A stretch of DNA of 50,229 bases from positions 1 to 50,229 of the IMG/VR virus record IMGVR_UViG_3300020414_000439; one strand, written 5' to 3'. This DNA comes from a virus. Taxonomy: Duplodnaviria; Caudoviricetes. Positions 1 to 44,304 of this stretch are shown in pieces. The notes under the pieces are model-generated. The model saw nothing but the letters and a program-made list of their open reading frames with translations, had not been told where the DNA came from and did not search any database. Position 1 is the stretch's first letter. Each line of letters begins with the position of its first letter. Both the position numbers and the translations under genes were made by a program.

Positions 1-1382
1 GCAGTTGCTCCATCAAGAGTAATATCAGGATCAGAAAAATAGGAACGGACATTGACATCAATCTCACCAGCGCCACTATCCCCTGTATTATTAGCGCCAA
101 ACAGTAAGTTGCCACTAGTATCATTAACTTTAACATAATTAAGATAGTTGAAACCTCTGTAACCAGTAGTTGCAGTTAGTTCTTGATCAAGTTCAAAATT
201 CTCTACGGTATTACCGTCAGCGAAACCAATACGATTATTTTGTAATTGTGTGTTATCTACGCCTAATGCAGCGATGGTGACGTGCCCGTTGCTGTCAACA
301 TCGAAATCTTCCTGTGCAAAGGAAGCCAGTCCCTTCTGTTCCGTTGCTTCAGCCGCGAGGTAACGCCATGATCCAGTATCACCACTGGAATGAGTAGGAG
401 CACCAGCACCAGCACTAATGTCCGCAATTGCTTGGTATACTTTTGATGCATTCTGAATGATTGCATATCTAGAGTAAGCAGTCCCTGCATCATAGTTAGG
501 ATACTTGCTACCCTCAGTAGCAGTAGCGATAGGCACATTTGTTGCACTGGTTAATCTACCATATGCATCAACCGTAAATTTCGTAGCGTTTACAGTTTCT
601 GTACCAAAAGGTTCGCTGTTACTACCTGCACCAGATACAGATGTCAGGGATTCAGTATTATAGTTACCTGCTTGAACAGCAGTTGTGATCATATCGATAG
701 TAGGATCACCAGCAACACCAGAACCATTATTAATTTGAATTCTAGTAGAAGTACCTTGAATAGTTCTAGTTGCTACATTACCAGTAGATGTCTTGGCATA
801 CAAACCAGTACCAGTATGTCCAGCAATTGCAACCAAATCAAGGTCATATGGTTGAGCAGAAGAACCTTCTACAGTACCATTAAGGTTATAATCTGCAAGA
901 GTTGATGGTGTAGTTGCATTAACAACTCTACCTTTAGAGTCTACTGTAACTTTAGTATATGTACCAGTAGCATTAGCATTACCTGCATCATAGTGAGGTA
1001 AGGTATTCAGAATCTCTAGTGTAGAATTGAGATTCAGGTTGGAACTACCATCAAAAGTTCCAGTAGCGACAAGATCACCAGATAATTGAATTTGACGGGT
1101 GGTAGCAATTCTCTGAGCGGTGGAAGCATTACCAATCAGGTTTGCAGTAATTGTACCAGCAGCAAAATTACCATCAGCATCACGCTGAACCAGTGAGTTT
1201 GCAGTTGCAGTGGTAGATTCGACAGGTCTGGAATATCTCAGATTACTCCAGTTGGAAACACCATCACCGATTTTGAAACGACCAGTGTTAAGTTCCAGAC
1301 CGATTTCGCCCTGAGCAAGTACGGGGTTAGAGTTGGTCCACTCTGCGCTGCCACCACGTCTTAATTGAATTCTATTTGCCAT
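1..1382 (-). CDS. Tail fiber protein, 5' part (runs off the left edge; absent from the ORF track)
   Basis: Hand translation from ATG at 1382 gives MANRIQLRRGGSAEWTNSNPVLAQGEIGLELNTGRFKIGDGVSNW, the Mtd/hyaluronidase-type fiber N-terminus. It is followed by fiber motifs (GNASTAQRIATTRQIQLSGD, YTKVTVDSKGRV, KFTVDAYGRLT). A late promoter lies upstream. Confidence 0.88.
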   Translation of the reverse strand, partial: MANRIQLRRGGSAEWTNSNPVLAQGEIGLELNTGRFKIGDGVSNWSNLRYSRPVESTTATANSLVQRDADGNFAAGTITANLIGNASTAQRIATTRQIQLSGDLVATGTFDGSSNLNLNSTLEILNTLPHYDAGNANATGTYTKVTVDSKGRVVNATTPSTLADYNLNGTVEGSSAQPYDLDLVAIAGHTGTGLYAKTSTGNVATRTIQGTSTRIQINNGSGVAGDPTIDMITTAVQAGNYNTESLTSVSGAGSNSEPFGTETVNATKFTVDAYGRLTSATNVPIATATEGSKYPNYDAGTAYSRYAIIQNASKVYQAIADISAGAGAPTHSSGDTGSWRYLAAEATEQKGLASFAQEDFDVDSNGHVTIAALGVDNTQLQNNRIGFADGNTVENFELDQELTATTGYRGFNYLNYVKVNDTSGNLLFGANNTGDSGAGEIDVNVRSYFSDPDITLDGAT

Positions 1383-10782: not shown

Positions 10783-13700
10783 TTACGAACGAATGATTGT
10801 CTGATAATCGATTCCTTTAATTCTATATCTAGATCCACCCGTTCCCAAAATGTCTTCACCACCCAAAATAGCATACGCTGCGGCACCACTACCAGTAGTG
10901 TCGCCACTTGCTGCGGAGAATGTTATTGTGGGATGTAAGTTATATCCACTATCAACAGATTGTTTTATGCCATATCCGCCGTTAGTTATAGTTACTGAAG
11001 CAACTTGGTCACCAGCGCCAGTAAGAACTGCTGTTCCAGTTGCCTCAATATCACCAATGTTTTCAATTGCAACATTAGGTGTCAATGTGTAGTTTGTTCC
11101 AGGATTTTGAACAATGATATCAACAACTGTAGAATTGTGTGAGAATTCATACAAGAATCCATTCTCACCTTTGTTGGAATCACCAGTGTTGAAGGGTACT
11201 GTATCTTTGATAGTTAGTTTTGATGTACTTGGATCCCAGGAAACTACAGTTGCCTGTACTCCTGAAACTTGACCAGTAATAACTTCATTAACACTAAAGT
11301 TTCCACCATTAGCATTATCAGCATCCAACTGAAGAGTTATTAAACCAATATGCTCAACACCTTCACTCAAACCTCCAGCAGTTGTAATTGTGGAGAATTT
11401 GAATGGAATAGAAGCATCTTTGATTTGGTCTCCATTTTGGAATAATGTAGTGTTTTGACCACCAACAGTTTCTTCAATACCAAATTTAGAGTCTCTACCA
11501 GTTTCGCCAGGTTCACCAAGAATAATACCACCATCCAAACTAATTTGACCCTCATATTGAGTTCCAGTATTAACCAAATCAGCAATACCATCACCAACAC
11601 CATCCAATTCATCATCATCTTCAAAGGCACTATTTGCCAGAGTTGTAATAGGTTCGGTTAGTAATGTAATCGAATTGCCTTGAGAAGTGAGCACTACATG
11701 TGGAAGTTGTGAGGATGCACTAGAACTATAAACACCACCATCAAACTGGACAATAGCATCCTCGGTAGAGGGAATACCTGCATCAATAAATGCAAGTTCA
11801 TCAACTTCAAATGTAACAAGGAGTTCCCTAGTTGCAGGATTCCAGTCATATACTCGTGCTAATTTATTAGAAGCACTTTCAACTTTTCGGATTACAACAT
11901 CACCTACATTAAATTTGTAAGTGGAATTTCCATCATCATCAAGTTGACTATTGTCAACAATAACTCTCTGATCATAATTAAAGTTAGTTCCTCTTGTAAG
12001 TCCAGTAAATTTACCAGATGTTTTTGCGGTATAAGAAACTGTCTCTTTATTGATAATAAATGAACCAGAACCAGGAAAAGCACTAGTATCATCAACGTAG
12101 ATATTAGTATCAGAAGCAGTAACGTTCTTAACAAGACCTGTCAGATAACGAATATCTGAGTTCAAAGATTGTCTTGCTTGAGTCTTTCTTTTTAAATTTA
12201 CAAGTTTTGTAAAAATAACTTGAGGACTAGATGTATAACCAGCACCCTGATCAGTAATATTGATTGCAGAAATCTGTCCTTGATTTACTTCCGCTGTTGC
12301 TCTTGCACCAGATCCACCGCCACCAGTAATTAAAATGTAAGGAGGTTCTTGGTAGAACTCACCAGGATCGTTAATACTGATACTAGTAACTTTACCAGTA
12401 GGACTTACTTCTGCAGCACCTTCAGCATCTTGACCACCGCCACCAGTGAATTGTAGGTTAGGTGCAACTGTATAACCTTGTCCTGGGTTTAAAAGTGTTA
12501 GACCAGTAACTGTTTGAACAACTGGATTAACAAGTGCTCCACTTCCTTCACCACCTAAAATTCTCGCAGTGGTAGGACCAAAATAATTATCACCCTGTTG
12601 AGTGACATTAACGTATGCAATGGTTCCATCAGGATTTAGTGCAACATCTCCCTCTGCTCTAGTTGGGAAAATATCTGGTTTTTGAGGAACTGTATCACCT
12701 TCAAATAAAGGAACACCATAATATTTTGGACCAATAGCATAAGGATATGCTGGATTACCACTGCTATCTTCGGTCATGAAGTAAGCATATGTTCCGTTGG
12801 GATACTCAGGAGTAACGGCAAATTTGCCATTAAATTCATCTAAAGTACCAACAGATGAATCATATACATAATCCTCAACAAAATCACCAAGAACATATCC
12901 ATCTTGAGTAAGTCTGAATCCTAATCCAGAAGTAGAATATGCAAACGTATATAGATTGTTTGGAGCATCTACAGGTACAAAGAATCTCATCTCCCGTTGA
13001 GATGCAGTAGTAAATTGACTAAGATACTGAGTATACGTTACTTGAGATCCATCAATATAATAAGTTGCAAAATGAGGTTGAGAATAAAGATAAGTCGTAT
13101 CTCCAATAACAGGAGGAGCACCTACATGCCATCCGTCTTCAGTTGTAGAAATGAACAAATGATTTGCATCATTTGAAGAATCATCTTGATTGAAGACGTA
13201 GGTTTTACCTCTTTTTAGATTCAAAAATGGAACTACAGAACCATCTACTAAAAACTGACCATTTGCAACAGTAATTGCATAAGTAACCGTTGATGGGGTT
13301 ACAATTTCTTCGCGATTACCAGCAACCTCATTACCAGTTCTTAATCTGTATGAAGAAACTTCTCTTGCTACAGCACCGCTAGAATTATATCCCCATGGAC
13401 CATAAATGGGATATCCATCAAAGGACATACCAATAACTTTTGAGTGTCCATCTACATGTCTACTACGATCAATGGTTGATGTATCACCAGGTTGATAAAA
13501 ATCTTCGATGTAGTAAGTGTTCATGTTTACTTCATCTTCTTCCTCTTCTGGTGAGGTGTCAAGAATCATATAACCTTCATCACCAGCATAACCAGACATA
13601 TAATTATGGTTGCCGCAATAATAATAGATTCTATTATTCTCATCTTCATTCATTAAGAATAAAGCCTGATACTCATTTTCATAATCCGCAGCTGGTGCTG

Positions 13701-14964
13701 AAGACGATCCGCTACTGGTGTATAAAATTGTGCCAGGTGAAGATTGATTTAGAGGACCATCTGGAGTCGTACTAAAACGCATCGGATGGCCTTGATTACT
13801 ACTATCCGATTGATTCCAAATAATTAAGTAATTTTTTTGGACCAGAATATTTTCTGGTGCCATGTAATAAGTTCCTGGTGTAAAAGCACCAAACTCATGT
13901 GCTTCTGGACCAAAGTCAATATAGAAAATACCTGTGGGGAATGTAATGGGAGCACTTTGAAGTGTGAAACTAAATCCATTAGAACCAAGAATTTTATCTC
14001 CAGATGCAAAAGTAGATTGAACTTCTCTTATGTAAATTCTTGTAGGAAGACCATTGCTATCGGTAATAACCTTAGCAATTTCTCCTCGGGCATTTCCACC
14101 AATTTGTGTAATAATTCTACCAACTTCAACAGATCCCAGTGTTTGATCGAGAGTTGCGGGATCAATGAATAATAGTAAATTATCAAGTTCAGTTTTTACA
14201 TTCCATGTAAATTGTTCTAATTTGCCCCATTGAAAAACACCATTTTCTAAGGCAAATTCATTAATTGTTTTAGATGATGAATAGTATTTAATATTACCTT
14301 CAGTAATAGTATCATATACATCTGCATTTTTTACATAATCATACTTTACAGTATCAATGGAGAAAGTACCTGGTGCTCCACCATCAGATGCCCAGTCTGG
14401 AGTATGTAAAAGACCGCCATTAGCAAGAATGCCAGTTACTTTATCTTCTTGTGCAAGTCTTGTACCAAAATTAGGTACATCTTTACCACCTCTGTATACA
14501 AAGGTTTGATCAAAAGATCTATCTACTAATGGACCACCACCAGGTACTGCTTCTGCTTGAGTCCATGTAGGTTTTGGATGATTATCAGACTCAATTCTCA
14601 GTCTATCATCCGTAAAAGTTCCCCTAGTCAATGAGTTAGGGTGAGGTTGCCAGATCCTATTAATATCAAAAGATCTTACAACATTTGGAGTTTCTTGTTG
14701 AGGAACAATTTCAACACGAAGTGGATCGTATCCTCTTCCTCTTCTGAGAACACGAACGTGAACAATTTTACCAGAACCTTCTGAAATGATTGGATATAAT
14801 ATCGCCTCCACATCAGGAGTGCCGCATCCATCAATAGTAAGTCTAGGTGGATCAGCAGGATCATATCCGCTACCACCATTTACTACTCTTACCGCTCGAA
14901 CACCAAATATATCATCAAAAATCGGTTCAATTACGGCACCAGATCCAGGAACTAGTCTTGCCAT
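10783..14964 (-). CDS. Putative virion structural protein with a split YHYH-type domain, cupredoxin-like inserts and Gly-rich beta repeats (1393 aa)
   Basis: HSKVIGMSFDGYPIYGPWGY; LDEFNGKF.VTPEYPNGTYAYFMT; repeated I..GG.GYT..P.V.F.GGGG.GA; located in the baseplate cluster. Confidence 0.82.
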   Translation of the reverse strand: MARLVPGSGAVIEPIFDDIFGVRAVRVVNGGSGYDPADPPRLTIDGCGTPDVEAILYPIISEGSGKIVHVRVLRRGRGYDPLRVEIVPQQETPNVVRSFDINRIWQPHPNSLTRGTFTDDRLRIESDNHPKPTWTQAEAVPGGGPLVDRSFDQTFVYRGGKDVPNFGTRLAQEDKVTGILANGGLLHTPDWASDGGAPGTFSIDTVKYDYVKNADVYDTITEGNIKYYSSSKTINEFALENGVFQWGKLEQFTWNVKTELDNLLLFIDPATLDQTLGSVEVGRIITQIGGNARGEIAKVITDSNGLPTRIYIREVQSTFASGDKILGSNGFSFTLQSAPITFPTGIFYIDFGPEAHEFGAFTPGTYYMAPENILVQKNYLIIWNQSDSSNQGHPMRFSTTPDGPLNQSSPGTILYTSSGSSSAPAADYENEYQALFLMNEDENNRIYYYCGNHNYMSGYAGDEGYMILDTSPEEEEDEVNMNTYYIEDFYQPGDTSTIDRSRHVDGHSKVIGMSFDGYPIYGPWGYNSSGAVAREVSSYRLRTGNEVAGNREEIVTPSTVTYAITVANGQFLVDGSVVPFLNLKRGKTYVFNQDDSSNDANHLFISTTEDGWHVGAPPVIGDTTYLYSQPHFATYYIDGSQVTYTQYLSQFTTASQREMRFFVPVDAPNNLYTFAYSTSGLGFRLTQDGYVLGDFVEDYVYDSSVGTLDEFNGKFAVTPEYPNGTYAYFMTEDSSGNPAYPYAIGPKYYGVPLFEGDTVPQKPDIFPTRAEGDVALNPDGTIAYVNVTQQGDNYFGPTTARILGGEGSGALVNPVVQTVTGLTLLNPGQGYTVAPNLQFTGGGGQDAEGAAEVSPTGKVTSISINDPGEFYQEPPYILITGGGGSGARATAEVNQGQISAINITDQGAGYTSSPQVIFTKLVNLKRKTQARQSLNSDIRYLTGLVKNVTASDTNIYVDDTSAFPGSGSFIINKETVSYTAKTSGKFTGLTRGTNFNYDQRVIVDNSQLDDDGNSTYKFNVGDVVIRKVESASNKLARVYDWNPATRELLVTFEVDELAFIDAGIPSTEDAIVQFDGGVYSSSASSQLPHVVLTSQGNSITLLTEPITTLANSAFEDDDELDGVGDGIADLVNTGTQYEGQISLDGGIILGEPGETGRDSKFGIEETVGGQNTTLFQNGDQIKDASIPFKFSTITTAGGLSEGVEHIGLITLQLDADNANGGNFSVNEVITGQVSGVQATVVSWDPSTSKLTIKDTVPFNTGDSNKGENGFLYEFSHNSTVVDIIVQNPGTNYTLTPNVAIENIGDIEATGTAVLTGAGDQVASVTITNGGYGIKQSVDSGYNLHPTITFSAASGDTTGSGAAAYAILGGEDILGTGGSRYRIKGIDYQTIIRS

Positions 14965-14970
14965 TTATCC

Positions 14971-16218
14971 TCAACTAATAACGTTAATAGTTCCCTGCAT
15001 TGCAGCATGGATTGTACATTGATAATACAATGTGCTAGGAGCGTCCATTGGAACAGTCCAATAGAGAACGTTACTACCACTACCACTTTGACCAGCAGTG
15101 TATGGATTACCTGCTAAACCTTGAGTGCTTTGAATTCTGAATGGATGAGCACCACCTTGTACGCTGTTATCAAAAGCGTAAGTAAATCCTCTATTCACAT
15201 ATAAGGTAGGATCATTAGCGGTTGAAGGGAATCCTGGTCCTTGGAAAGTGAAATCGGAAGATCCGTTTGCATTAATTTCCCACCAAGTAATAGGACTACG
15301 AGTAACAATCCAATCGCTACCATTCCAGAATAATGAATCTCCTTGAGTAGGAGTACCAAACTGAGCACCACTTGACATGTCAGTGTCAGTCATTGCTGCA
15401 AATGTAGTTGGAATAGTTCCATTAAATGCAACAGTAACTGTATCTCCAACAACACTAGTAACGATGTCAGCACCACCAGCAATCGTCAGAGTATCAGTCT
15501 GAGTATTTGCTGTTGTACTACCAGTATCTGCGGTTACAGTAGCAAACAAGTTAATGCTTGCAATACCAGCAGCATCATCTCCAGGTAACCATTTGCTGCT
15601 AGAAGCATTCCACTTCAGAACCTGGTTATTTGTAGGAGCATTGGTTGTTGTATCTACATCCAACAAAGCATCAACACCAGAATATTGTGTCAATAACTTT
15701 GCTCTAGTATCTCCAACACCGCCAGCAGTGATATTGATATTTACATAAGGACTATCGTCACCATCAACAGTGAAGAAATAACCCTTATAATTAGCAATGG
15801 CAGGAGCAGAACTTAATGTTGCATATTGGTTTTTATATTGAATTTTCGTAGGAAAATCAATAACACCAGTAGCACCATCAAAGACACTGGTAACACTTCC
15901 ATGAGAAATGTTTACATCTCCAGTTCCATTGGGATTTAAAATAATATTGCCATTCGACGCCGAGATAATCTCGTTTCCGTTGACATTTAGAGCGGCGGTA
16001 AGAGTGTCAAGATTACCAGGTTCAAACCTGTTATTTGACGTATATTTCAATACTTGATTGAGAGTTGGACCAGAAACGCTCAGTTGAACGTCGGTTCCAT
16101 TTCCAATCGCACCATATACTTCATTAAAGTTATCATTAATCTTATCACCGCCCGCACGGAGGGTATCCCCCGTGTTATCATTAGCGGAAGCGCCAATACC
16201 AATAATTTGCTTAGACAT
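14971..16218 (-). CDS. gp9/gp10-like baseplate-fiber connector with a C-terminal cupredoxin-like domain (415 aa)
   Basis: N-terminus KQIIGIGASANDNTGDTLRAGGDKINDNFNEVY is the T4 gp9/gp10 signature. C-terminus has HPFRI...LYYQCTIHAAMQGTINV. Confidence 0.82.
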   Translation of the reverse strand: MSKQIIGIGASANDNTGDTLRAGGDKINDNFNEVYGAIGNGTDVQLSVSGPTLNQVLKYTSNNRFEPGNLDTLTAALNVNGNEIISASNGNIILNPNGTGDVNISHGSVTSVFDGATGVIDFPTKIQYKNQYATLSSAPAIANYKGYFFTVDGDDSPYVNINITAGGVGDTRAKLLTQYSGVDALLDVDTTTNAPTNNQVLKWNASSSKWLPGDDAAGIASINLFATVTADTGSTTANTQTDTLTIAGGADIVTSVVGDTVTVAFNGTIPTTFAAMTDTDMSSGAQFGTPTQGDSLFWNGSDWIVTRSPITWWEINANGSSDFTFQGPGFPSTANDPTLYVNRGFTYAFDNSVQGGAHPFRIQSTQGLAGNPYTAGQSGSGSNVLYWTVPMDAPSTLYYQCTIHAAMQGTINVIS

Positions 16219-16246: not shown

Positions 16247-19200
16247 GGATCTCTGGATCAATTAGTTCTTCACCATATTGGGAAAGATCAGGTGCAGTCC
16301 AGTCATCTGGGACAGATGTCTCAACAACAATCTCTGGATTTTGATATCCAGTGCCTTGATTTGAAACTTCGATAGATGCAACACCTACCAGGGCACGAAT
16401 GTTAGCACCAGATCCTTGGATAGCACTAGCATTAACTGCTGGTCTAGAAGTATAACCAGATCCACCAAATGTAACCTTGACGGATTCGATCGATCCTGTT
16501 GTGACGTTAGCAGTTGCTTCAGATCCGCGTCCAAACACAGACCCAAGATAATCAAATGTAATCAGAGAGTTAGAAGATTCAATGATAGCAACTTGCCTAT
16601 CTTCAACTTCACCCTGAATATCTAACAGATCTCCAGGTTCAATTGGAGGAACAACTTCAGCAGCATCAACGTCTGCCTCAGAACCAACGTAAGAGAACGC
16701 AACGAATGTGGAACCTACGCGAGGAATTTCGGAGAAGATGATTCTAGAACCAACGATTTCAAAGGACTCTTTTGGTTTCTGAATAACACCATTGAGCGAA
16801 ACAATAATATTATTTTCAGGAAGGATGTTTGTAGATTGTACACCATCCGTCAGAGTCAATGAGTAGAATACGTCATTACGCTTCAAGTTGAAGGATTGAC
16901 GTAAGGAGTCAAACTCAAACGAAATATCATCCAATTGTCTCAGTTTACCAATATAGAATCCAACGAAGGATGCTCCAGCATCAGGTGCTTCAGTGAATTG
17001 AATTTGATCAGAGAACGCTGTATATGCGTTAGTTGCACCAGGAGGTTGGAGAACACCATTAACAAAAATGAGCATGTGACCTGCGGGATCGGGCAGATAT
17101 TGTGTGCCATTATTGATGGAGAGTTTGAAGGTAGTTGTAGTACCATCAAATCCTTTAAATGATCTCTTAACTCTACCTTTCAAATCAACCAAGTTGATAA
17201 TTGCTGCCTTGAATCCATTAGGACCAATTACTGCGTCATTTGCAGTAAAGGCACCAACAATATTACTGAGATAGTATCGTGTAAGTGTGCCAACTGTTTC
17301 AAAGTTTTGAATCAATGCCGATGCAGCACCTGCGGTAGTTACGTTAGTGTTGATAGTTGCATAACCAACTGGGAATGGAAGACTACCAGAAGGACCATAA
17401 TCACCAACCTGTTCACCATTACTAAACGTTCCTTGTACAGGCGTGAAGTAAATATAATTATTTGCAAGATCTACACCCGTAATAATTCCATAAACATTGG
17501 TAACTTGTCCACCACCAACAACTTTATAAAGTCTGTTACCAGGCGTAAAGTTGTTATATGTGACATTCTGTGCAGTGATGACGGAGATACCGAGACGAAT
17601 CTGACCAGAAGATGCAATTCTGTCACCAACATTAACATCAAGACCTTCATATTTAGAAACATCGATGTATTGTCTGGACGTGTCTGGATAAACAACAGCA
17701 GTCTTCTCAAACTCACCTGTAAGGGTATCAGTATCAACAGAAAGTGTACCGCCAGTATTAGCATTAACCGCAGCAGTGTTCTTGTAGAACACGTCAGGAG
17801 TTGCATTGCTTCCACTAGTATAACCCTTGAATGGGATATCAGTAGTAAATCCACCCTTAAGATCAATGATGTGCATACGATCTTCGATGAGACTGATTTG
17901 TGCTGTTGTAGTATTCGTAGCACCAACTAATACGTCAGTAATTGCCCAAGTACCACCAGTTACAGCAACATCAAGATACTTATAAGTAGCATCTTCATGG
18001 AATCCATAAACTTGACCCGTAACAGAACCATCGCCCTGCTTGGTAACAACTTCATTCATTACGAAAGGACCATCAGTGATTGCACCATCGATACGGAATC
18101 TCTTATAGATTCTCGCAATAGTTGCAGAATTTTCTACCTTATTCTTAATTTCTGCATATGCGTCACTCTGTAATCCATAGACATATTCAGTAGCATCAAC
18201 ACCGCCGCCAACACCAACAGCAATATCTCTAACACCATATGTCTTAGCAGGTACAGAAATACCACTATAGAAAGGAATTGTATTATTGAATGCAGTGCTA
18301 CCCAGTTGACTCTGAATAAGTCCATTCAGATAACGAATCATTCTAGTGATTGATACCTTAGCATAATCAGTATTGATTGTATTATCATAATATGCATAGT
18401 TACCACCAGCGGTAGGACTTGTCAGAGTATTGTCAAGGGACTTACTCATCCATTCAGTCAGTCTAATTAAGATTCTAGACTTAATATTAAATTCAGTATT
18501 AGAGAAGAATGTTTCGCCAGATACTGCCTGATAAGGATCTAGAGCACCCTTATTCAATTTTGCACCCCAAACGTAGAAACCATCATTTCCAGTTCCTGTG
18601 TAATCAGTTGCCTGGTTGTTGAGAACGTAAATTTGTTGACGTAGTGTACTGAATCCAAAACCAAAGCGAGCAGTAGTAAAGATTCTATACCAACCATCAC
18701 CATAAGGAATTACACCAGTATCCATTGGAGTAACTGTTGCAACTTGGAACGTGAGATTGTTAGTTCCATCTGCTCCACCAAGAACACTACCAGTTACTGT
18801 AAAGTTGTCACCAGGTGCATAATTTGAACCAGTGTTGGTAACTGTGATAGTTGCCTGATTGGGTTGATTAGCGTGATCAATAGTGACATTGAATGTTGCA
18901 CCAGCACCACCATTGGAAACATTAGATGTATTTGCAACACTTGTGTAAGTGCCAGTCATAGCACTTGTAGTGATAATTGAAATAGAACCTAATGTTTCAA
19001 TATTATTGGAATTTACAATAATATCACCAGCATTTCCACTACCATCAAGGATATTTACAGATCCCTTAGCACCATTATCAAGATCTACATTAAAGAATAC
19101 TCTCTGAGAATTATTTCCTGTGCCAGCGTCAAGTCCAACTTCATATCTGAGATTGGAACGAGTTCCTGCTTTTGCAAAGAAGGACAGAGTAAATGTTTGA

Positions 19201-22200
19201 TCATCGGTAAAGGAACCTGTGTCAAACGTTTCAGACCCAGAGTCAAATTTAACACCAGAACTATCAAATGTTTCAAACGATGTTAGATTGAAATCTCTAA
19301 ATTTAAAGTGTTGACCAGCGGTGGTGTTATCTTTAATATGATCAGCAGTTTGAGTGCCATCAGGAGCAAGAATAGCATTCGCAGCATAAGTCGTATTGCT
19401 ACTAGACCAGTTAGTGCTGAAATCTTCTGGATTTGTCCAGAGGTTTGTACCAGCAATTTGACCTTCAATCAGACCAGTAATACCAGCAGCGGTAGTTTTA
19501 GTTCTGACATTACCAGGTTCTGTATACCAATCATATGCACTTCCAACACCACTGGTAGCAATAGTTGCTGTAGCACCAGAAGTTTGACCAGTCAGAGTTT
19601 CTGCAGCAGACCAAGTTGTGCTTGTAAAGTATGGTCCGATAATCAAAATAGAATCATCTTCCAACCATTCATTAACGAGAGCATATCCACCACCACTAGA
19701 AACAACGGTCTCTCCAACGGAGAAGTCACCAGTCACACTGGTTAATGTAATGTTGCGTGCGTCTTCTTTCTTATAGAAGTCGGTTGTCATTATGTCATGA
19801 ACAATATTGGTGGTGAGTTCATCAACAAAGTCGTTATAAACCCAAGATCCAGCACCAAACTGAACATTAATTTCAGAATTAAGTTCTGCTCTATAGTAAT
19901 GCTCATTGAACAGAATTTGCTTACCAGCAGATCTTGCGGGTGTGCCACCAGGAGCAAGGATTCCAATGACAATATCAACCAGAGTACGAAGACGATAGAT
20001 TACTGCATTGATATCGGATGGAGATTCGCTATCACGATATGCAGTTCCAGTCTTAGGAGTGCCACCAGCGTTATTACCAACACCTGCATATTGAGCAGCA
20101 TATTGACTACCCGTTACAGAATCTCCGTTGTTATACAGAAGATTATTCAATGCTTTTTCACCAAGTTGCTTAAGTTGCTCGATTGCATAAACTGTTGCCA
20201 ACAATTCGCCTTCAACACTAGTAATTCTCTGATTACCATCAAGATAAAGTTCGGCAGCACGAATTGTGCTGTTAGTTCCACCAGTTTGCAGGTCAGAAAT
20301 GATACTAATAAGAATCAGTTTAAGATCTCTCTGACAGGTAACTTCGCCACTAGATCCAGGATATTGGAATGCATTGTAAGTAACATTGTTCAGAGTATAA
20401 GTGAACTCTGCTGTTGTGAGACCCGTTGCTTCTTCAGCAATGTATTGCCTGTTGAAGTAAAGTCTATCTGCACCGATTTGATAATCACCACCCTTAGGTG
20501 CGATAATCTCATTTAAAGTAGAAATTAATGTATCAATTGCAGTCTTGACATTTGCACATCCACCACCATCTTGAGTAATACCCCAATCACCAGTAATAAT
20601 TTTATCAGTATTAGTGCTATCAAGATCACCAGTAATTGCCTGCTTCATGTAGAAACCAAGTCTCTCATGAGCATATTCCGATTGCCATACTTGTAGGCGA
20701 ATATGAATCAATTCATCATTAGCACCAAGATATTGTCTTGCTACATTTGCTGTATGGAAATTACCGCCATCTTCAACGTCCTTAACAAGTTCATTAAGAA
20801 GCAAACTAAGGTCAGTTTGACATCTTAATGTTCCAGCAGTGCTAGATCCATTTTGGTTTCTTGGCATATCTGCTGCAAGATCAGGATATCTCTGCAGTAA
20901 GTCGAACGATGCCTTATCTACAATAGCACCAGAATTCAATCTAATTAAGTTAGCAGCATCACGGAATCTATACTGAGTATCTGCATCAATTTGATTTGTA
21001 TAGAAGATATTATTTGCAGCATCAACGTAATCAATTGAAAGATCAACATCGCTAAATGCATCAACTGTTGCACCAGCAAATTCAAACGCAGGTTCTACCT
21101 TAGTTACGCTAGCAAGATGATCAACTGGTACTGCGAGATTTGCATTACTGAGTGTATCAATAATGATATCCATCAAGTTGCCGATGGTTGTATAAACATC
21201 AGAACAATCACCAGAATCAAAGTTTGATACAGAAACAGAGTTGCTAGCAGCAGAAACAAAGGTGTGAGTGTATCTTTGTCTGACAGGAGATGCTCCAACA
21301 TTAACTGTAAATGTGTTGGTATCTGCAGCAGTAATTTCAAGTAAGGAATTGAGATTCGCAGAATCAGGATCGGGATATGTTTCCTGACTCTGGTTGCCAT
21401 CTAATGTACATGTAAATGTCAGTGAATCGGGAGCAATATAAATTTCATCACCCGCACGAATGACTCCGTTAGATGCTGCACTTACGAATGTATGAGTATA
21501 ATTACCACCAGTTGTGATTGCGTTCGTTGCAGAAGAAACAAATGTATGGGTGTACTGAGTTGCAGTGACCACTGCACCTGATGTAGCGGATACGAAAGTA
21601 TGTGTTGTCGTATTGCTAGAAGTACCAACATTAAGTGTAACTGCACCAGTCTGTTTGATCAACGCACCAGCAGTTGCTTGTACAAATGTATGACTTGTAG
21701 TATTGGTAGAAGGACCAACCTGAATAGTAAAGGTGTTGGAGTCAACAACTGTTACATCAATCCACTTTCCGCTGATAGGATCAGTAGTTCTAGGATAAGT
21801 CTTCTGAGTAGCATTATTATCTTGAGCACAAGTGTATGTCAGAGAATTGTCTGCAATCTGAACTCTATTACCAGTAGAAAGTCCATGAGATGCCGAAGTA
21901 ATGGTGATAACACCAGTGCTAGGTACATAAACTGCGTTGGTAATGTTTGCAGTGGAAGTTCCAACTGCGCTAATAGTCAGTTCGGAATCATATGCACGAT
22001 CTCTCTTGACCTTAATGCCGTTAGAAGTTGCTGATACAAATGTATGAGCGTATTGATCTCCTTGTGCAGAAGCACCAACATTAACTGTAAATGTGTCTGT
22101 GGTAACTGCAGAGATAACCAAGAAAGTTTCATATGCGGGATCAGGATTTCCGTCCCCTGCAACTGCACGAGGATAAGTCTTTTGAGCACTATTGCTATCC

Positions 22201-25200
22201 TGCGTACAAGTAAATGTGAAGGAATCATGAACAAACTTAACTTGATCGCCAGTTGATAATCCATGACCAGCAGAAGTAACAACAAACTCACCAGTTGAAG
22301 AATTATAAGTTGCATTGGTAGCAGTCTTATTATCCAAGATAGATCTAGGATACAACTTGTTAGTTGCGTTACTATCTTGATCGCATGTGAAAGTAAGAGA
22401 TTCCTTGCCAAGACGAATCTTATCGTTGACATTCAAACTATGAGTTCCGATCTGAAGAACCATATCACCTGTGGTGGGGTTATAGCTGGTTCCAGTTGTA
22501 GGAGTATAAGTTACTCTGTTAGGTCCAACATAGACTGTAACTGTGTTATCCCTCTTAACAATACCATTAGGTACAGCAGACACGAATGTATGTGTATATT
22601 GATCTTCTGCCTTAGAGGGACCAACATTAACTGTGAATGTGTTGTTGGTTGCAGCAGTGATCTTCAACCATCTACCAGCAAAAGGATCTGTGGGACGGGG
22701 ATATGAATGATTTGTATAGTTATTATCCTTAGAGCAGGAGAATGTTAATGAATTATTTTCAAGTCTAATTTCATCAGAAGTAGTCAATCCATGACCGATA
22801 GCAGTGATAACGATCTCACCATTTGCAGGATTGTATGCTGCATTAGAGACTGAAGCATTAACAACCACGCCATCATTATAGATGGGGAGAGGAACGTTAT
22901 TGTTTGCAGGATCACTGGAACGAGGATATGTGTGATTAGAAGCACCACCATCCTGACTACAAGTAAATGTCAGAGCATCATTGGTAAGTTTGATTGTTTC
23001 ACCAGATCTTACAATACCATTTGCCTTTGCACTAACAAAGGTATGAGTAGAAGTATCAGAAGAAACACCAACATTAATATCAAAGGTATTGGTTGTGATA
23101 TTCGTGATTGCAAACCACTTATTAAATGCAGGATCGGGACCAGCATCACCAGCATATTGTCTAGGATAGGTATGATGAGTTGCATTGCTATCTGTAGCAC
23201 ATGTAAACGTCATCGAATTGGGTTCGATGAGAACGCGATCACCAACAAACATTCCATGATTGGGAACTGTGATAGTCATAGCACCCGATGCTGGAGTATA
23301 GACCGCATTAGTTGCTGTAAACTTCTGAGAAGTTCTCAAATCATGATCACCGATGGTCATCTTGAGAGCACCAGTTCCAGGATCATAAGTCGCTGCAGTT
23401 GGTGTGTAGTTAACTGTAGGCGATGCACCAACGTTAACATCAAATGTATTTGTAGTGACGTTAGAGATAATCATCCAACCCTGACTTGCAGGATCATCTG
23501 CTCTAGGATAAGACTGAGAAACTGTATTGCCGTCAGAAGTGCAAGTAAACGTCAGAGAGTTATCAGCAAATTGAATTCTGTCGCCATTTGCAAATCCATG
23601 ATTATTAATTGTAACTTGCAGAACACCTGTGGTTGCAGTATATGTTGCGTTTGTTGCAGTATGAGTAGTTCTAGCAGTAAGACCATGACTATTTGAAGTC
23701 AAGACCATTATGCCAGTCGAAGAATCATAAGTTACATTAGTGGGTGTTAATTGCGTCAGAGAAGCATAATCAGATTCAGTGATAGTAGAATCTGTACTTT
23801 GTGTCAAACCATGATCTCCTTGGATATCCCAAAGAAGATTGGTAATAACGAATCGCACAATTTCTTGTGCTTTTTGTAAAGTATAAATCGATTCGGGAAT
23901 TTCAGATTCAATATGATAAAGAGAGATTGGACTTGTCGCTCTATTAACATAGAGTGCCGCAGCATCCCAAACATGGTTATTACTACCATTACGAAGGTCT
24001 TCAACAACTGCTTCTAAGATATCTACAACGTCATCTTCGCAATTTACATCACCTTTAGGAACACTGAAGGATGCAAATCTTGCCTTCATGATATCTACTG
24101 CTTCTTTAGCAATAAAGTCTTTATTTGCAAGGATTAAATCAGCAGCATCAATATATCTCTGACTATTGCCAGTAAATCCAGCAGGAGCACCAGTTAAGCG
24201 AGATGTTGCAAGAATTGCCTCATTATTGATGTCCTCACCCTTAGTGAAGTTTTCAACGCCAGACCAATCTTCAGTATGAGTCTGACCATAAGATCCATCA
24301 AAGTGGACCAGAAGTTTGGCATTAGCATCACCTTGGAATACTCCGTTAAGTGGTGTGAAGTTTGCTGTATAACGAGCATTATTAGAAATTCTAACCTCGT
24401 CAACATAACCAGCAAAGTCATTTGATGCATCAAAGTCAGCACCAATTCTGACTGGTTTGGTAGATCCATAGTTACTAGCATCTGTATAAGTGGATCCTTC
24501 TTGTGTACCATTCAGGAACAACTTAGTGCTAGTACCGCTTCTGGAGAGGGCAACGTGATACCAAGTTCCAGCAGAGAGATTTGTAGATCCGCTAATTGCA
24601 GCACTACCATTATTATAATACTTAAGGTTTGCACCATCAAGATATATTCTAGGTGAAAGTTCAGTTTCTTGAGTTCTGAAATCAAAGATTGCTCTCTCGC
24701 CAGCAGAAACTAAGAGAGGGTTGATCCAACATTCAATTGTAAAATCACCAGAAGCAAATCCAAATTCAGTAGATGTAGCAAAACTGATATATTCATCAAC
24801 AGGAACTGCACCAACGTTTACTGTAATCGTAGTGGCAGTCACTGCAGTAATATTACGGGCAGATCCTGATGCAGGATCAGTAGACCGAGGATATGTTTTA
24901 TTTGAAGTGTTATTATCCTGAGCACATGTAAATGTCAGGGTATCGTCTGCAATAAGGACTGTATTGGACGTTGTGAGAGTATGAGCACCAATCTCAAGAA
25001 CCAAGTTACCAGTCTCAGGATCGTATGTAGTGCCTGTAGCAGCAGTAAATGTGCCTGTAGCACCACCACTAGCGGTAATAGAGTCTGCAGTGCCACTTAC
25101 AAATGTGTGTGTAGCAAGACCAGGTGAAAGTGCTAATGCAGCAGTTCCAAACTTCTTATTATAAGTGTTCAGAGTTGCATTAGTGAAAGTTGCAGAATGA

Positions 25201-28200
25201 TAATCTTGACCATTTGCTTGAGTTCTACCAATCTTACCGACATAGATGATCTTGTCAGCAATATTATAACCAATGACCTCTGCCTTTGTATCTTGAGTTC
25301 TTACAACCTGACCTTTGTTAAACAGACCATTGCCTTTCAGATTCTTTACTGCAAGTTTTCTACTCTTAGCAGTTTCACCAACAGCATAGTCAAGAGTATT
25401 ACCAATGCCGTAATCCATCTTATAATTACGGATTACTTCATTTTCCGTAAAGGCACCGCTAGCATTATCATATTTGATTACGTTATTACTGATAGGTTCT
25501 GTTGATGGGAACTTATCGTCAAAATCTGTAGTATTAGTTGGGAAGTCAACAATGTTAACCTGCGACTTGGAAATATCATCCAAAACAACGTTTGGATATG
25601 TCTGAGCAGCAATTCTGTTGAACAGAAGACCGAAGAAAGAAGAACCATCAGAAATATCAAATTCTCCAGAAGATTCTGGTAATCCAGTGGTGGGATCAAT
25701 CTGTGCATTAGGAGCAACATAAGATGCCACAAATGTCACCTCTGCAACAACATCGGACTGAGAACCAATGATAAAGTCATTCTGATTGATTTCAAACAAT
25801 CCAGGTTTAGACTGATATGTACCAGTTGTCTTACTTAAAAGAAGTCTGGTTGTAACATTAATTTCTGTTCCGTAGAGAGGTGTTCCACTAGATTGAGAAT
25901 CAGAAACTGTACCATTATTCAAACCAGTTGCTCTAGTTACTGTCAAAGTAGTAGAATCAGAATTATCTGTAATTGTATCTACACGGAACAATTCGGAACC
26001 AAACTGATAGATCTTAGTTGGAATAAGATTTCCAGCAGGTACAGGTGCTGCTGGTGCATTAGGATCTGCATTATATGCAATGACTTCAATTGTGCTAGTT
26101 GTTGCACCGATGGAGAATCTTAATTCGGCAAGAGGTGTTTCAGCACCTGCTGCAAGGTTGATTTCTTCAACTCTTGCAGTTTTACCAGCAAGATTTCGTA
26201 CTTCTTCACCAAAAGCATATAGACCATCGCTTACTACTGCTGTTGCTGTAGCAAAGTTAGCATTGAATCCTGTAGCACCAACTGTTACAAATTCACCGCC
26301 GATGAATGAAACTAAGTTACCAGCAACAACCTCGGTGAGGAAACCAAATACATTATTACCTACAACTTTAGTTACGGTCAATCTAGCATTAGAATCAGAA
26401 CCAACCATAACATCACCAATATTAGGGAAGATACCACTAATGTTAGTAAATGTAAGTTCAATGACATCTTTCAGATTAATTGTAGTTTCTACATATTGAA
26501 CTTGAGCGTCAGGTTGAGGAGGTTCTGCAAAAACAATAGAATCTTGCTCAATAGTAAAAGAAGTTCCAGGGTTCTGAACAACACCATTGAGAACAATCAT
26601 CAACTGATTAGCATTTGCCTGAACAGGGGTATTATTAACCTTAAGGGTAAATGCTTTCTTAACACCATCAAATTGATCAGAAATATCATCAATCTGGTTA
26701 GTAAATGAAGTCAGAATATTCTCTGAAGATGTCAGTCTCTTTTGTCTGAAGAGAATTTCAGTATTATTAAATTCAGAATAAATTGGTTGAACCAGAGCAA
26801 AACTTTGAATATTGGGGACAATTGCTTCTCTTGCAAGTTCAACAGACTTAGTAATTTGGAAAGTAGTCTCTTTGTTAGGAATAGAACCATATTCATCAAG
26901 ATTCAGTTCACCAAATACCTTGAATGAAGCAGGGTGAACATTCTTAAGGAGAATGTCTTTCCAATCATTAATAGAAACTGCAGACTTAACAGCATATGAG
27001 AAGTCCTGATAATAATAAGAGTCTTGGATCTTTTGAATAATTTCGGATGGTTTACCAACATCATCAGTAAACTGACCAGAAGTTTTAGTAATAGAACCAA
27101 TTTCTAAAACACCTTTAGCAACTTTGAGGTCACTGATAACACCAGAAGATTTGGAAATAACACCAGTGATTCTTTCATTCAGAGAGAAAGTACCATCATA
27201 ATCAACAATCTTCAGGATTCTAGGTCCAACCTGCCAACCATTGTTTGTAGAAACATAACCAGTAGCAACTGCAGTCTCCAGTGAATTGCCTTGATAAACC
27301 AATTCACCTTCAAGGAAAGTAGAAGTTTCTACATTAGCAGTTGCAGCACCACCGAAGGAGGAGGTAAGAACCTGCTGACGACCAACACCTCTACCACTTT
27401 CACCATCGACGAATGTAATTGCATCACCGAGAGCAGCGTTAGCAGAACTAATTGCGATCTTTAACTGGTCATCTTCAAGAGAGTTTGCAGATCCAGCAAT
27501 TGCATAATATGTGGTAGTTCCATTCAGAGTGGTAGCACCAGATGCTTCAGGGAATGCTGTACCATCTCCAGTATCAACAACATTCAAAGTAATCTGTGCC
27601 CCATTTGTAATACCATGAGGGAAAGCGAATTGCAACAGACCCAAATCAGTGTTTACAACATAATTGAAAGAAGATTTCAACTCAATAGTAGGTTCTGAAG
27701 AATATCCTGATCCAGGATCTTTAACAACAATTTGATTCAGTCTACCATTTTTAATTTCTGCTGCAGCAATTGCACCAGTACCGCCACCACCAGTAATTAC
27801 AACTTCAGGTGCTTGAGAATATCCAGATCCAGGATCGGTTACGGTAATACTTGCAAGAATACTGGTAGAAGTTAACTGAGCATTGATTGGGAATGTGATT
27901 TCAGGACGTAAGGTATAATCATGAGGATAGTCATAACCGAAATTGTTATTCTTCAGTCTCTTAATCTTACCAACGCTAGTACCTTTGGTAAATACCGAAG
28001 CACCAGTTCCGAAAGGAGGAATGACTACATTAAGATCAGCACCAGAACCAGTATTACCAGGTCCAAGAATACCATCAATCGCTTCAATATCAATAGAGGC
28101 AGTTGTATAACCAACACCAAATGAAGTTACTTGTACCTTTTGAATCTGTCCAGGAATGACACTACCACCACTATCAGATCCATCTGCTACTGTAATTTCA

Positions 28201-34200: not shown

Positions 34201-37200
34201 GGAATACCTGTTGATGCAACATAAACGTAATCATCATTGAAGAAAGTATTTTGAATATTAGTCGTATATGGACTAATAGCGTTAAATACAGCAGAATTGT
34301 CAGACTTACCTTTGTTAAGGTCAATAGAAACTAGAATATTACCCTGTGGAGCAACAGCAGGGGCTTGAGGCAATTCGTATTTAAATACTGTAGGACTAGT
34401 TCTGTTCTTAACTAAGAATGTTCCATTGTAAATGATTGGATTTGCACCATAAATTGAAATCTGGTCACCAACCAACAAACCATGATTGTTAGAACAAGTA
34501 ACTTCTGCAATATTACCATCAAAAGTAATAGAAGTAACTTCAATTAATTTTTTGACGTTGTATAACCAAGTTGAAAGATCAGCAGTATTACCAGTACCAC
34601 CTAACTTAGAAATTGATAATTTATCGCCAGGAAGATAGTATGATCCAGTATCAGTAAGAGTCGTTTGTTCGGCATCAACGATACCAACAACTCTCATGAG
34701 AACTTCTCTATCAGTTCCTTTATTGATATAGACACTAAAGTTTGAAGTTACCTCTGTAGCAGAGTCCCAAACTTGAGCAGGTCCACTAACAGTAGCACCA
34801 CGAGTACATTCAATAAACTGGTTTAGGGATTTTTCTTTATATTGTACAACTTCAGTTCCACCAATCAAGAATTGTCCATTTCTTTCTGGCCAACCAATTG
34901 TAGAGTCTACAGTGATAATACTATCAGTGGTAGAAAGAGGTTCTGCTAACTTTGTTTTATAAGGAACTACAAATTTACCCTGAATAGTTTCTTCGGAGAG
35001 AACCAATTCATAAATTTCAGTTTCAGATGTTCTAATAGCAATATAATTTTCTACCAGAGCACTTGCCGCTAAAATATTAGGATCTGCAATATCAGCATCT
35101 TGCTGTAGTAAACCATCTCTAATATTGATAGGATCACCAGATACTAAAACTGCTCTTAAAACAGTATCAATTGACCATGTAGATGCAGAAGGTTTGATAA
35201 TCTGATCTTTAGGGTAAGTTACACTAACTTCTTCACCATAGAGGAGTTTGAACAGATACGAAATACTGAAAGAAGTACCTTTAGAAGTATAGAAATCTCT
35301 TACACTTTTAATTGCATTTCTAACATCAATTTTAGTATAGTCAAGTTCAGGAACATCGGGAAGGAATTGTTCCGTATACTTATCAAGAAGTCGTTTAATA
35401 AAGAGAGCGTCTAGACATTTAACAGGAGTATCTGCAGTTGCTGCCGCTGCAGATGTATTGTTAGAAAATACTGCGTTACCATCTTCGGTATACCTAACAA
35501 TACCACTAGCAGCTCTAGCACAACCCTCGAAAGATGCCTTTGAGTATCCGCTACCTTGCTTATTAATTTTATAACCAGTTACTTCATTCAGACCAATATC
35601 TACAGACGCTCTAGCATTAGGAGGTTCTTGAATAAAAATTTCAGGAGGTTCTGCAGCACTATATCCACTACCAAATGCCGATACATTAATATCAGTAATT
35701 TTACCATTGAAAATAGAGGCAGTTGCAGTTGCTCCACTTCCACCATTTTGACGATTATCTACAATATAAACAGAAGGGACATCATCGTATCCAGATCCTC
35801 CATCAAGAAGATCAATGCCAACAACACGTCCATCTCCATCAACGCGAGTTTGAAGAACTTGAGCGCCAACAGGATCGATAATAGCAATTCTAGGAGTAGT
35901 TTCGTATCCTTGACCTCTATTAAGAATATTGATAGAGGTAACTACACCATTAGTAAGAACTGCTTGGAATGATGCCTTAATGGAGTTATCTCCAGTGGGT
36001 TCGTCAACATAAATTGCAGGAGGTGTGGTATATCCAGATCCACCATCAACAATAGGAACAACGCCTATAACTTGACCGCCACCAATAGTCAGAGTTCCTA
36101 ATTTTGCTCCACCAGGTTGTTTGAACGTGACTCTAGGAGTAAAAGTATATCCACTACCAGAACTAACAACCTCCAGTGAAGATACAGAACCATTCGTGAC
36201 AGTTGCTTTTAATTGTGCAGGAACAGATCCTGCCTTTGTAGGAGCCTCTACGATAACCGCAGGTGGGTTTGTATCGCTATATCCTTTACCACCATGCAGA
36301 AGGGTAGAACTTTTAACTCCATTAACCAGAGTTGCTGCCGAAGCACCAAATCCCGACTCAGAGTTAATAGTTACCTTAGGAGGATACTCAAATCTATAAT
36401 TTGATCCACTAACACTAGTAGAAATAGAAGTTAAATTACCATCATCATTTACACGAGCAAAACCAACTGCATTTGCACCAAAAGAAGGAATAGGTGCTTC
36501 AATTGAGAATAATGCAAGTTTTCGTCCATTCAGAGGAGCAGTTTCAAAAATGAAATAATCTCTATCAATATAAAAATCTTGTTTAGGGATCAACAATTGA
36601 TTATCATAGATTGCAATGAGAAACTCATCTACAATGGGTTCATAAGGAATACCCGATCTTGTCATTTTGAAAGAAGTTTTACCTTCTCCAAAAGAACCAG
36701 AAATATCATCAATCTCAAGGATATTATTTTCAATAAAACCACCAAGATAGAAGATATAAGTTAAATCACTAGAGTCTGCAGGAATTCTAGTTCTAGGAGC
36801 AGTTGTAAATACAATATTAGTTCCACTAACAGTATAATCAACTCCAGGAATTAAGATCTGTCCATAAAGACTAACAATTAAATGCTGAGCTGTTGGTGGT
36901 GCTGCGGGATTACCAGCAGTTCTTAATGGAAAGATCGTAGTTGTTCCATCATATGAATCAATTTGACTCTCGGCAATAGTCCACTTTAATTTTACTTGCT
37001 CATAAGAAATACCAGGACTGAGAGCAATGTTTGGTGCTGATTTTGTACTTTCATAATAAATTACTTCATCACCAATTAAAACAGAACCATTTTTTTCTAC
37101 AAACTGATCAACACTCTCTACAACAATAGATGTTGAAGTTGTAGTAATAGGTTCTACAATTTTCGTACCCCCGTCTAAGATACCGATATCAAGTTTGTCG

Positions 37201-43269: not shown

Positions 43270-43271
43270 TG

Positions 43272-43484
43272 TCAGTTACCCTCCAATGTACTGATACGAT
43301 TGTACAATTCATCGTAGTTCTCTTTCACATTCATGTACTTTGTATGCCCTTTTGGTTTGTAATACGTCTTATCAGGTGTTGGTAGTTCGGACACATACTT
43401 TTCAAGCGCCTCAACCCGTTCTATGAGTGCTAGAAGGACTTCATTGATCTGTACATGTTCTTCATGATTCTGGTCGTCATTCAT
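43272..43484 (-). CDS. Hypothetical protein (70 aa)
   Basis: Tightly packed ORF; coiled-coil-like LIERVEALEK; YKP.G...Y......D.LY.RI..LE. Confidence 0.75.
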   Translation of the reverse strand: MNDDQNHEEHVQINEVLLALIERVEALEKYVSELPTPDKTYYKPKGHTKYMNVKENYDELYNRISTLEGN

Positions 43485-43641
43485 TTTTTGCTCTTCTTAA
43501 AATAAAACTATCACCATCTACTTCATATTCCAAATCTTGATTGATGTCCCATCCCAGTTCTTCACACACTTCATAAGGAATTGTCATGATGAGATCTCCG
43601 AAATCATCTTCTTCTAGTTGTGTTGTGAATCTATGGGACAT
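43477..43641 (-). CDS. AbrB/MazE/SpoVT-like small protein (54 aa; not in the ORF track)
   Basis: Hand translation MSHRFTTQLEEDDFGDLIMTIPYEVCEELGWDINQDLEYEVDGDSFILRRAKNE fits the pattern G...hTIP.Eh.E.LG......L.h...GD.hhL; GAGGT Shine-Dalgarno very close to the ATG. Confidence 0.72.
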   Translation of the reverse strand: MSHRFTTQLEEDDFGDLIMTIPYEVCEELGWDINQDLEYEVDGDSFILRRAKNE

Positions 43642-43649
43642 ACCTCTAC

Positions 43650-43868
43650 CTACATGCGATTACTTATCTGGGGGTTATCTGTTGGATTCTTTGCTTTCCA
43701 CTCAACCCATAGTGTATATAGATCTTTCTGATCTTTAACTAACCCTGCACTGGTCGCATAGTCTGCACATTCATACATCCTAGGGTCTAGACCGCCCTCT
43801 AAACGAATTAACTGCTCTAACGCCCATACCCTCGCATCCTGTCTTTCAATTCGGGTCTTGGAGTCCAT
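43650..43868 (-). CDS. Hypothetical protein (72 aa)
   Basis: ORF with a GAGGT Shine-Dalgarno; first gene after the non-coding junction. Confidence 0.78.
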   Translation of the reverse strand: MDSKTRIERQDARVWALEQLIRLEGGLDPRMYECADYATSAGLVKDQKDLYTLWVEWKAKNPTDNPQISNRM

Positions 43869-44260: not shown

Positions 44261-44304
44261 AAGTCTCAAAGATACTAGGTGTGTTTCTGAACCCTTACAA
44301 GGTT

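Follow-up and report, generated by a model that had tools for sequence, protein, structure and literature searches.

In a marine, T4-like cyanophage, the giant putative baseplate protein gp7 very probably contains eight copies of a domain of ~105 amino acids (aa) nested in one another's loops, and its chain is predicted to fold there as a branched tree. The protein is encoded on a 50-kb fragment (IMG/VR record IMGVR_UViG_3300020414_000439, positions 1 to 50,229, a virus record 29% complete); this whole stretch of 50,229 nucleotides is referred to here as the window. The gp7 open reading frame (ORF; 7041 aa) contains the nested region at window 21228–23750, which corresponds to gp7 residues 4540–5380, and a plus-strand reading of the region was ruled out by stops throughout. 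Full-length matches to the region with 99.3–99.4% protein identity were found in the isolates S-P4, S-E7 and Syn30 (Synechococcus phages), thereby indicating that the nested region is not an assembly artefact. In total, 322 phage records matched the region, and the organism names tallied were cyanophages or marine viruses throughout.

Nested parse of the eight copies

Each copy consists of five ordered segments, A to E, which we located by motif and position-specific scoring matrix (PSSM) scans of gp7. Eight A, eight B, eight D and eight E segments were detected in the region, with a distinct gap from the background, while the PSSM located segment C for only 6 of the 8 copies, those of copies 1 and 3 being positioned by eye. 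When the 40-segment string was stack-parsed, it gave an exact nested tree of depth 5, with three children on copy 3 and two on copy 6. This tree is identical to that of a preliminary description of the DNA, which had read the eight copies as brackets closed in last-in-first-out order. The fraction of orders that nest validly is 3e-19 among random orders and 1e-11 under the stricter null in which A<B<C<D<E is kept.

After removal of the inserts, the discontinuous copies 1, 2, 3 and 6 were reconstituted as units of 106, 103, 104 and 104 aa, respectively. They matched a leaf-only hidden Markov model (HMM) over their full length (115, 133, 85 and 104 bits) and aligned nearly gap-free to the contiguous leaves 4, 5, 7 and 8, so that the first outcome named in the preliminary description as refuting the nesting did not occur. 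A profile of 61 contiguous units, 60 of which came from other phages, matched gp7 piecewise, and its profile coordinates agreed with the parse. Protein identity among all eight copies was 36–52%, and the DNA identity between them was only ~60–80%, which indicates that the copies are old. With multiple, partly discontinuous and mutually nested copies on at least five levels and with branching nodes, the region has an architecture of the Si3 type (see below). A ninth copy, absent from the preliminary description, was found at gp7 residues ~4083–4192 and is circularly permuted (E-A-B-C-D). It directly precedes a Pfam match to LamG (residues ~4193–4332) and, by eye, lies within the N-terminal part of the LamG domain. 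Coordinates are collected in Table 1.

Table 1. Segments of the nested tree, its host domain and the gene that carries them, with positions in the window.
Feature	gp7 residues	Window position	Strand	Basis
gp7-like baseplate wedge protein, 7041 aa		16242..37367	-	PF23786 match; gp6/gp9/gp8/gp25 neighbours; P-SSM4 gp7 position
Ninth copy, permuted E-A-B-C-D	~4083-4192	24792..25121	-	motif/PSSM scans, profile
Host domain, N-terminal part, Cys4443	4398-4537	23757..24176	-	model against phycoerythrin beta, profile
Copy 1 (root), segment A	4538-4564	23676..23756	-	parse, splicing; one-unit orthologues join A straight to B-E here
Copy 2, segments A-D, in A/B loop of copy 1	4565-4650	23418..23675	-	parse, splicing, model range 55..795
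Copy 3, segment A, in D/E loop of copy 2	4651-4679	23331..23417	-	parse, splicing, orthologue segment match
Copy 4, contiguous leaf, A/B loop of copy 3	4680-4787	23007..23330	-	parse, unit profile; wholly absent in four-unit orthologues
Copy 3, segments B-C	4788-4833	22869..23006	-	parse, splicing, orthologue segment match
Copy 5, contiguous leaf, C/D loop of copy 3	4834-4939	22551..22868	-	parse, unit profile, model range 327..429
Copy 3, segment D	4940-4950	22518..22550	-	parse, splicing
Copy 6, segments A-B, in D/E loop of copy 3	4951-5009	22341..22517	-	parse, splicing, model range 441..759
Copy 7, contiguous leaf, B/C loop of copy 6, depth 5	5010-5121	22005..22340	-	parse, model range 500..611
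Copy 6, segment C	5122-5136	21960..22004	-	parse, splicing, covariation test
Copy 8, contiguous leaf, C/D loop of copy 6, depth 5	5137-5239	21651..21959	-	parse, model range 628..729
Copy 6, segments D-E	5240-5269	21561..21650	-	parse, splicing, model range 441..759
Copy 3, segment E	5270-5287	21507..21560	-	parse; matched by 10/11 four-unit orthologues
Copy 2, segment E	5288-5304	21456..21506	-	parse, orthologue segment match, both models
Copy 1, segments B-E	5305-5383	21219..21455	-	parse, splicing, one-unit orthologues, unit profile
Host domain, last helix, Cys5388	5384-5410	21138..21218	-	models, profile

Predicted fold of the tree and of its host domain

Two AlphaFold2 (AF2) models were built, model 1 covering residues 4511–5414 from 18 sequences and model 2 covering residues 4398–5424 from 22 sequences. 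Model 1 reached a predicted local distance difference test score (pLDDT) of 78.8 and had strands in every segment, and model 2 reached 80.0. In structure comparison against 48,161 chains, the best matches spanned model range 55..795 (gp7 4565–5305), that is, both ends of copy 2. Over this range, the FCCH domain of UBA1 (Z 8.5, root-mean-square deviation (rmsd) 2.5, 77 residues aligned) and the phi92 endosialidase barrel (Z 8.4, rmsd 2.3, 82 aligned) were each matched as a single barrel, and the match recurred in model 2 (range 169..908). Copy 6 was matched as range 441..759 (gp7 4951–5269; best Z 5.4, rmsd 3.0, 81 aligned), and leaves 7, 8 and 5 as ranges 500..611, 628..729 and 327..429, respectively. 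The ranges for copies 2 and 6 end within 1–2 residues of the predicted ends of E2 and E6. Overall, the matches to barrels of the E1_FCCH/endosialidase type had Z 8.2–8.8 and rmsd 2.0–2.6 over 75–82 residues, and an Atlas neighbour was found at 0.92, with 73% PF16190.

The branched fold proposed in the preliminary description is thus seen in the models for the split copies 2 and 6, which match single barrels across their inserts, but not directly for copies 1 and 3. Closed domains flank these two across short linkers, and on geometric grounds they would close as barrels as well. The two ends of a barrel are predicted to lie next to each other, which would allow a child to fit any surface loop. 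The chain would exit its parent at a loop, form the complete child and come back, a path that can be followed directly in the models for copies 2 and 6 and geometrically for copies 1 and 3. It would run from the host domain through copies 1, 2 and 3, branch to copies 4, 5 and 6, go on to copies 7 and 8, and then return.

Several aspects of the modelling weigh against this reading. The predicted template modelling (pTM) score was 0.51 in both AF2 models. The alignment used for folding was picked from those tried because it placed the orthologous B at B3, a choice that favours the parse for copy 3, and this same MAFFT alignment puts the orthologous E3 on E6, contrary to the parse. Segment pairing was read solely from the first and last aligned residues of the structure matches, and copies 1 and 3 were never among the ranges matched in the structure comparisons. 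In addition, three rows for the K1F endosialidase covered 464..729/730 (Z 7.6–7.7), starting within copy 6 and finishing where copy 8 ends, which the parse did not predict. In favour of the reading, a separate BFVD model of the Syn30 protein superposed with a template modelling (TM) score of 0.65 over 904 columns; the rmsd of 17.8 indicates that branches are in part placed differently between the models.

Some of these observations would be accounted for if the fold were branched but partly strand-swapped, with E strands or A hairpins pairing out of bracket order as in some Si3 domains. The E segments are nearly interchangeable in sequence, MAFFT places the orthologous E3 on E6, the 464..729 ranges fit no bracket in the parse, and recursive HABAS domains are sometimes domain-swapped, according to the available portion of PMC11515920. 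However, the ranges 55..795 and 441..759 stop almost exactly where bracket order places the ends of E2 and E6, and the linkers are just a few residues long; we consider such swapping improbable. A linear array of degenerate tandem repeats, or an assembly artefact, has practically no chance of being correct. Foldseek comparison of the whole model with the PDB returned only non-specific multi-domain beta matches (TM <=0.09), as a linear array might, but such an array is refuted at the sequence level by the exact parse, the full-length spliced copies and the orthologue ladder described below, and the isolate matches and the model ranges for copies 2 and 6 likewise stand against it.

Searches of Pfam and PHROGs identified no named family for the unit; phrog_1276, a family of unknown function, matched eight stretches. 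A search of PDB sequences with unit profiles did not reach the endosialidases, and three weak stretches matching iota-carbonic anhydrase (best single-stretch E 7.6–32) were rejected as chance. Elsewhere in gp7, at residues ~940–1010 (window ~34340–34550, minus strand), a His-Gly-Leu..Gly-Asp start occurs without the Cys/YPR excursion. This stretch, which had no Pfam match, is perhaps a plain FCCH-like barrel.

A phycobiliprotein-like domain carries the tree in one of its loops and is predicted to close over the 846-residue insert; counting this host domain, the nesting depth is 6. A model range of 1..1010 matched a phycoerythrin beta chain (Z 17.2, rmsd 1.9, 137 aligned). A 42-sequence profile of uninterrupted relatives matched phycocyanin (E 1e-7) with the main Cys-x-x-Asp aligned, so that the fold and the sequence profile both point to a phycobiliprotein. 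A four-sequence profile of the host domain had found nothing meaningful. The 42-sequence profile matched gp7 at 4404–4540 and 5368–5408, together with two intact downstream paralogues. Cys4443 and Cys5388 are both present, the second Cys being aligned only within a weak stretch of the phycocyanin match. The domain resembles phycobiliprotein beta subunits in its globin-like fold (Z up to 17.2) but is fused into a virion protein, begins at ~residue 30 of the beta chains and is split by the 846-residue tree just before the second Cys.

The two downstream paralogues, uninterrupted phycobiliprotein-like domains, occupy gp7 residues 5467–5806 (window ~19950–20972, minus strand; 142 and 122 bits with profile A8). 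A second short repeat, of the F-x-x-G-E-x-V type, recurs within residues ~3350–6710 (window ~17200–27400, minus strand), with several starts ahead of the tree (3351–4374) and others following it (5882–6707). Judging from motif positions, it may be an outer nesting layer around the LamG and phycobiliprotein-like domains.

Size ladder among homologues and growth of the tree

Loci were gathered by protein, motif and flank searches, and those with both site flanks were kept, giving 59 distinct inserts. Five of these were empty (2–6 aa), eight held one unit (109–116 aa), 27 held four (412–440 aa) and three held eight (849 aa); among the larger ones, seven held eleven, three fifteen, two eighteen, three twenty-one and one twenty-three units. 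Insert size was 103–110 aa per unit, and the copy number at this site is 4 in Syn19, 8 in the window phage and 11 in P-SSM4. Orthologues with 0–23 units at the site were otherwise 44–69% identical. These data show that orthologues gain and lose units in whole-unit steps. The variable topologies anticipated in the preliminary description are thus found both at the orthologous site and in the differing parses obtained elsewhere.

When whole inserts were first aligned, the one-unit orthologues were placed on A1 and B1–E1, and four-unit orthologues lacked approximately one unit near copy 4 and the entire copy-6 subtree. When the segments of four-unit orthologues were assigned to their best matches, the contiguous A and B of unit 3 matched A3 and B3 of the window (11/11 each) and the closing E segments matched E3 and E2 (10/11 each); other segments were noisier. 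Homologues elsewhere were examined with two parsers. With the tolerant parser, 0–7 edits were enough to fit 31 of 37 large topologies, which ran to 25 units and a depth of 10. With a run-shuffle null on 37 strings, 12 of the 13 strings of at least 40 segments needed fewer edits than every shuffle (6–12 each), and short strings were not separated. An alignment from short topology-matched fragments was rejected, as MAFFT placed <=19/104 correctly.

Other results of these comparisons count against the nested reading. The placement of one-unit orthologues was unstable, their A falling at A3, A5 or A6 in other alignment sets, and by best segment match only their D and E went to copy 1 (3/8 skipped). 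A covariation test over contiguous homologue runs ranked the last-in-first-out partner 1–6 of 8 in 11 host tests, with a noisy leaf control (ranks 1–8). The strict parser accepted 55 of 138 complete homologue groups, although the window string itself failed it through one spurious C match, and 6 of the 37 large topologies were not parsed within the edit limit of the tolerant parser.

Additional insertion sites were found in homologues (L004, L006, L010): within A before His-Gly, within B after the Cys and, apparently, within E after the His-x-Phe strand. The E/A junction is also used, in permuted homologues. In several homologues, a permuted E-A-B-C-D copy is inserted inside segment B (string ABEABbCDbCDE). 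A separate family (P0040–P0097) consists of complete proteins of 640–770 aa with a common N-terminus and nested trees of the permuted unit in several topologies; of the 32 members aligned, most were 82–99% identical to the first. A scan of prokaryote genomes with copy 5 yielded one locus from 219 candidates and was too insensitive to show absence from cells. One unit with 43% identity to copy 5 was noted in a contig of a marine Euryarchaeota metagenome-assembled genome (L218:3001-3303), possibly a mis-binned phage contig.

The preliminary description had held that ordinary unequal crossing-over does not produce such a tree. This was overstated: because x[xy]y = xx.yy, two adjacent duplications suffice and no special self-insertion machinery is needed. 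Once a junction exists, a double crossover can copy it, and the data favour such a process. Junction linkers have stereotyped lengths, the commonest length accounting for 305/413 D-to-child, 215/286 E-to-E, 89/137 C-to-child, 113/115 child-to-D, 121/259 A-to-child and 155/210 child-to-B linkers, and by eye the window linkers fit these site-specific patterns. The nearest paralogue shared the insertion site in 151 of 341 units, against 86.7 expected, and was the parent or child in 31, against 54.3 expected. These counts come from related trees and are hence non-independent, which limits their weight. The site-stereotyped linkers and the same-site nearest paralogues together favour branch copying over fresh local duplication, and the sequences suggest that growth was probably mainly by recombinational copying. 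A few founding insertions per loop would have come first. Homologous recombination, either among copies or between phages infecting the same cell, would then have copied junctions and branches, an existing junction being pasted, with its branch, into any copy by a double crossover.

Growth mainly by fresh local paired duplications (xy -> xx.yy) through unbalanced intermediates would formally be enough for every junction, and runs of the ABCD-ABCD-E-E type are indeed common among homologues. Circular permutants, the usual by-product of duplication, also exist among the units. We nevertheless regard it as quite unlikely as the main route, since parent–child nearest neighbours were below chance and the window copies are as divergent in DNA and protein as stated above. 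Local duplication may still account for the founding events.

Comparison with known systems and possible function

The preliminary description knew of no example at this depth. Such an example exists in Si3 of cyanobacterial RpoC2, in which, according to the available portions of the reports (PMC13114784, PMC11515920, PMC10895346), one domain family is recursively inserted on six levels with bifurcating nodes (PMC13114784) and X-ray structures show continuous and discontinuous copies (PMC10895346). Both systems consist of a small beta domain inserted in its own copies, Si3 comprising 8–10 domains of the SBHM/HABAS family with a solved structure, as far as these portions go. The gp7 tree, in contrast, is located in a virion protein rather than in the trigger loop of the RNA polymerase beta' subunit, and its unit best matches FCCH/endosialidase-type barrels. 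When the matches were checked for SBHM/HABAS, the top rows were FCCH, endosialidase and reductase-type barrels, and no hybrid-motif domain was recognised among the matches listed, which leaves room for such a fold. Moreover, four loops are used within gp7 alone, homologues add further sites (within B, within A, and E/A in permutants), and one node of the gp7 tree has three children. Its site holds 0–23 units among close relatives, and trees elsewhere run to 25 units and a depth of 10; the size given for Si3 in the text available is 640–690 aa. The gp7 tree thus works like Si3 yet is not Si3; its new features are the fold, the use of four loops for branching and the variability between closely related phages.

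The PF12195 endosialidase barrel (K1F, phi92) and the PF16190 FCCH domain of ubiquitin E1, both of which are single inserted barrels, gave the best structural matches and weak Pfam matches (4 and 3 of 61 units at E<=0.1). The gp7 unit exceeds them by ~25 residues, makes a Cys...YPR..DP excursion, closes with a His-Thr-Phe strand and stays below both Pfam gathering cut-offs (window copies 14.6 against 29.5 bits and 14.2 against 35 bits).

The assignment to gp7 is based on the flanking genes, gp6 (37372–39420) and gp9 (14971–16218), with gp8 and gp25 also nearby, and on a match to the baseplate-wedge family PF23786 (34.8 bits, cut-off 27); position and signature both place the protein among T4-like gp7 proteins, and in P-SSM4 the annotated gp7 occupies the equivalent position. 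Gp7 proteins of Kyanoviridae (P-SSM4 gp7, Syn19_088) are alike in the gp25-gp6-gp7-gp9 order, the giant size and the PF23786 match, but they are annotated without a domain tree and differ in topology. In the literature searched, which was incomplete for subscription papers and left supplements aside, no paper on nested barrels in cyanophage gp7 or in phages was found; the available parts of PMC1079782 and PMC12801897 do not mention nesting.

Taken as a whole, the best explanation, and quite probably the correct one, is a nested barrel tree on a phycobiliprotein-like domain that probably grew by recombination and is likely to give the virus a low-specificity, multivalent grip on the surface of its host. 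By analogy, host-surface binding could be the main role, although we hold this assignment only tentatively. It is suggested because the nearest phage fold to the unit is the endosialidase barrel, a polysialic-acid site according to the available text of PMC12632334, and because the orthologue cluster is a virion protein: the Syn19 orthologue belongs to cluster T4-GC969, which was detected in S-SM1 virions (PMC3037559, in the part available). Against a binding role, fold-match Z values near 8 are only at the edge of significance, the Pfam cut-offs were not reached, the same fold occurs as the eukaryotic FCCH domain, and five same-site orthologues have no unit at all.

The same tree might instead be a passive scaffold or neutral decoration, an adjacent-ended domain tolerated in any loop that at most stiffens or extends the baseplate rim. 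This is possible, if on balance doubtful. It would fit the variation from 0 to 23 units in otherwise similar orthologues, the occurrence of the unit beside or within LamG, at other places in gp7 and in the unrelated 640–770-aa family, and the matches of similar barrels in phage neck, tail-tube and tail-tip chains. Two observations argue against it: up to 2.5 kb of extra coding DNA is kept per site, and Tyr, Gly, His, Cys, YPR, Asp and His are near-invariant in 416 contiguous units, a figure that is partly circular, as the units were found by these motifs.

The same units contain one Cys in 100%, the His of A in 98%, the His of E in 100% and a further His in 69%, and these residues could form a metal site (structural zinc, or iron/copper capture) that would make the tree a multivalent metal carrier of the virion. 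This is unlikely, as the Cys and His may be buried structural residues and the conservation figures carry the same circularity. As a bolder and rather doubtful extension, the tree may be a protein dendrimer of cyanophages whose branching is an evolvable host-range trait, junction recombination tuning the valency of glycan or metal binding from 0 to >20 per gp7; its stem would be a phycobiliprotein acquired from the host and maybe still pigmented. Mutations in very large S-PM2d proteins during coevolution are reported in PMC9910659, and no link from them to the nested unit was drawn here.

Irrespective of its role, the tree would be a branched polymer that occurs in nature, is built from a single linear chain and follows a grammar that can be read, and its unit would be a ready scaffold for multivalent protein design. 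With a depth of 10, homologues go beyond the six levels to which a 2026 survey covering 2.7 million classified domains draws attention, as far as the available text goes (PMC13114784). The natural size ladder (0, 1, 4, 8, 11, 15, 18, 21 and 23 units at one site), present in cultured and uncultured phages, makes testable the origin and spread of recursive insertion, the folding of deeply nested chains and the role of giant unannotated cyanophage baseplate proteins.

Two further features of the window were noted. YHYH domains (PF14240) are present at gp7 residues 1354–1523 and in a neighbouring protein of 1393 aa (window 10783–14964). Window 43270–49400, which lies between a baseplate gene and a helicase fragment, is a stretch of ~6 kb for which the table 11 listing contains no long ORFs.

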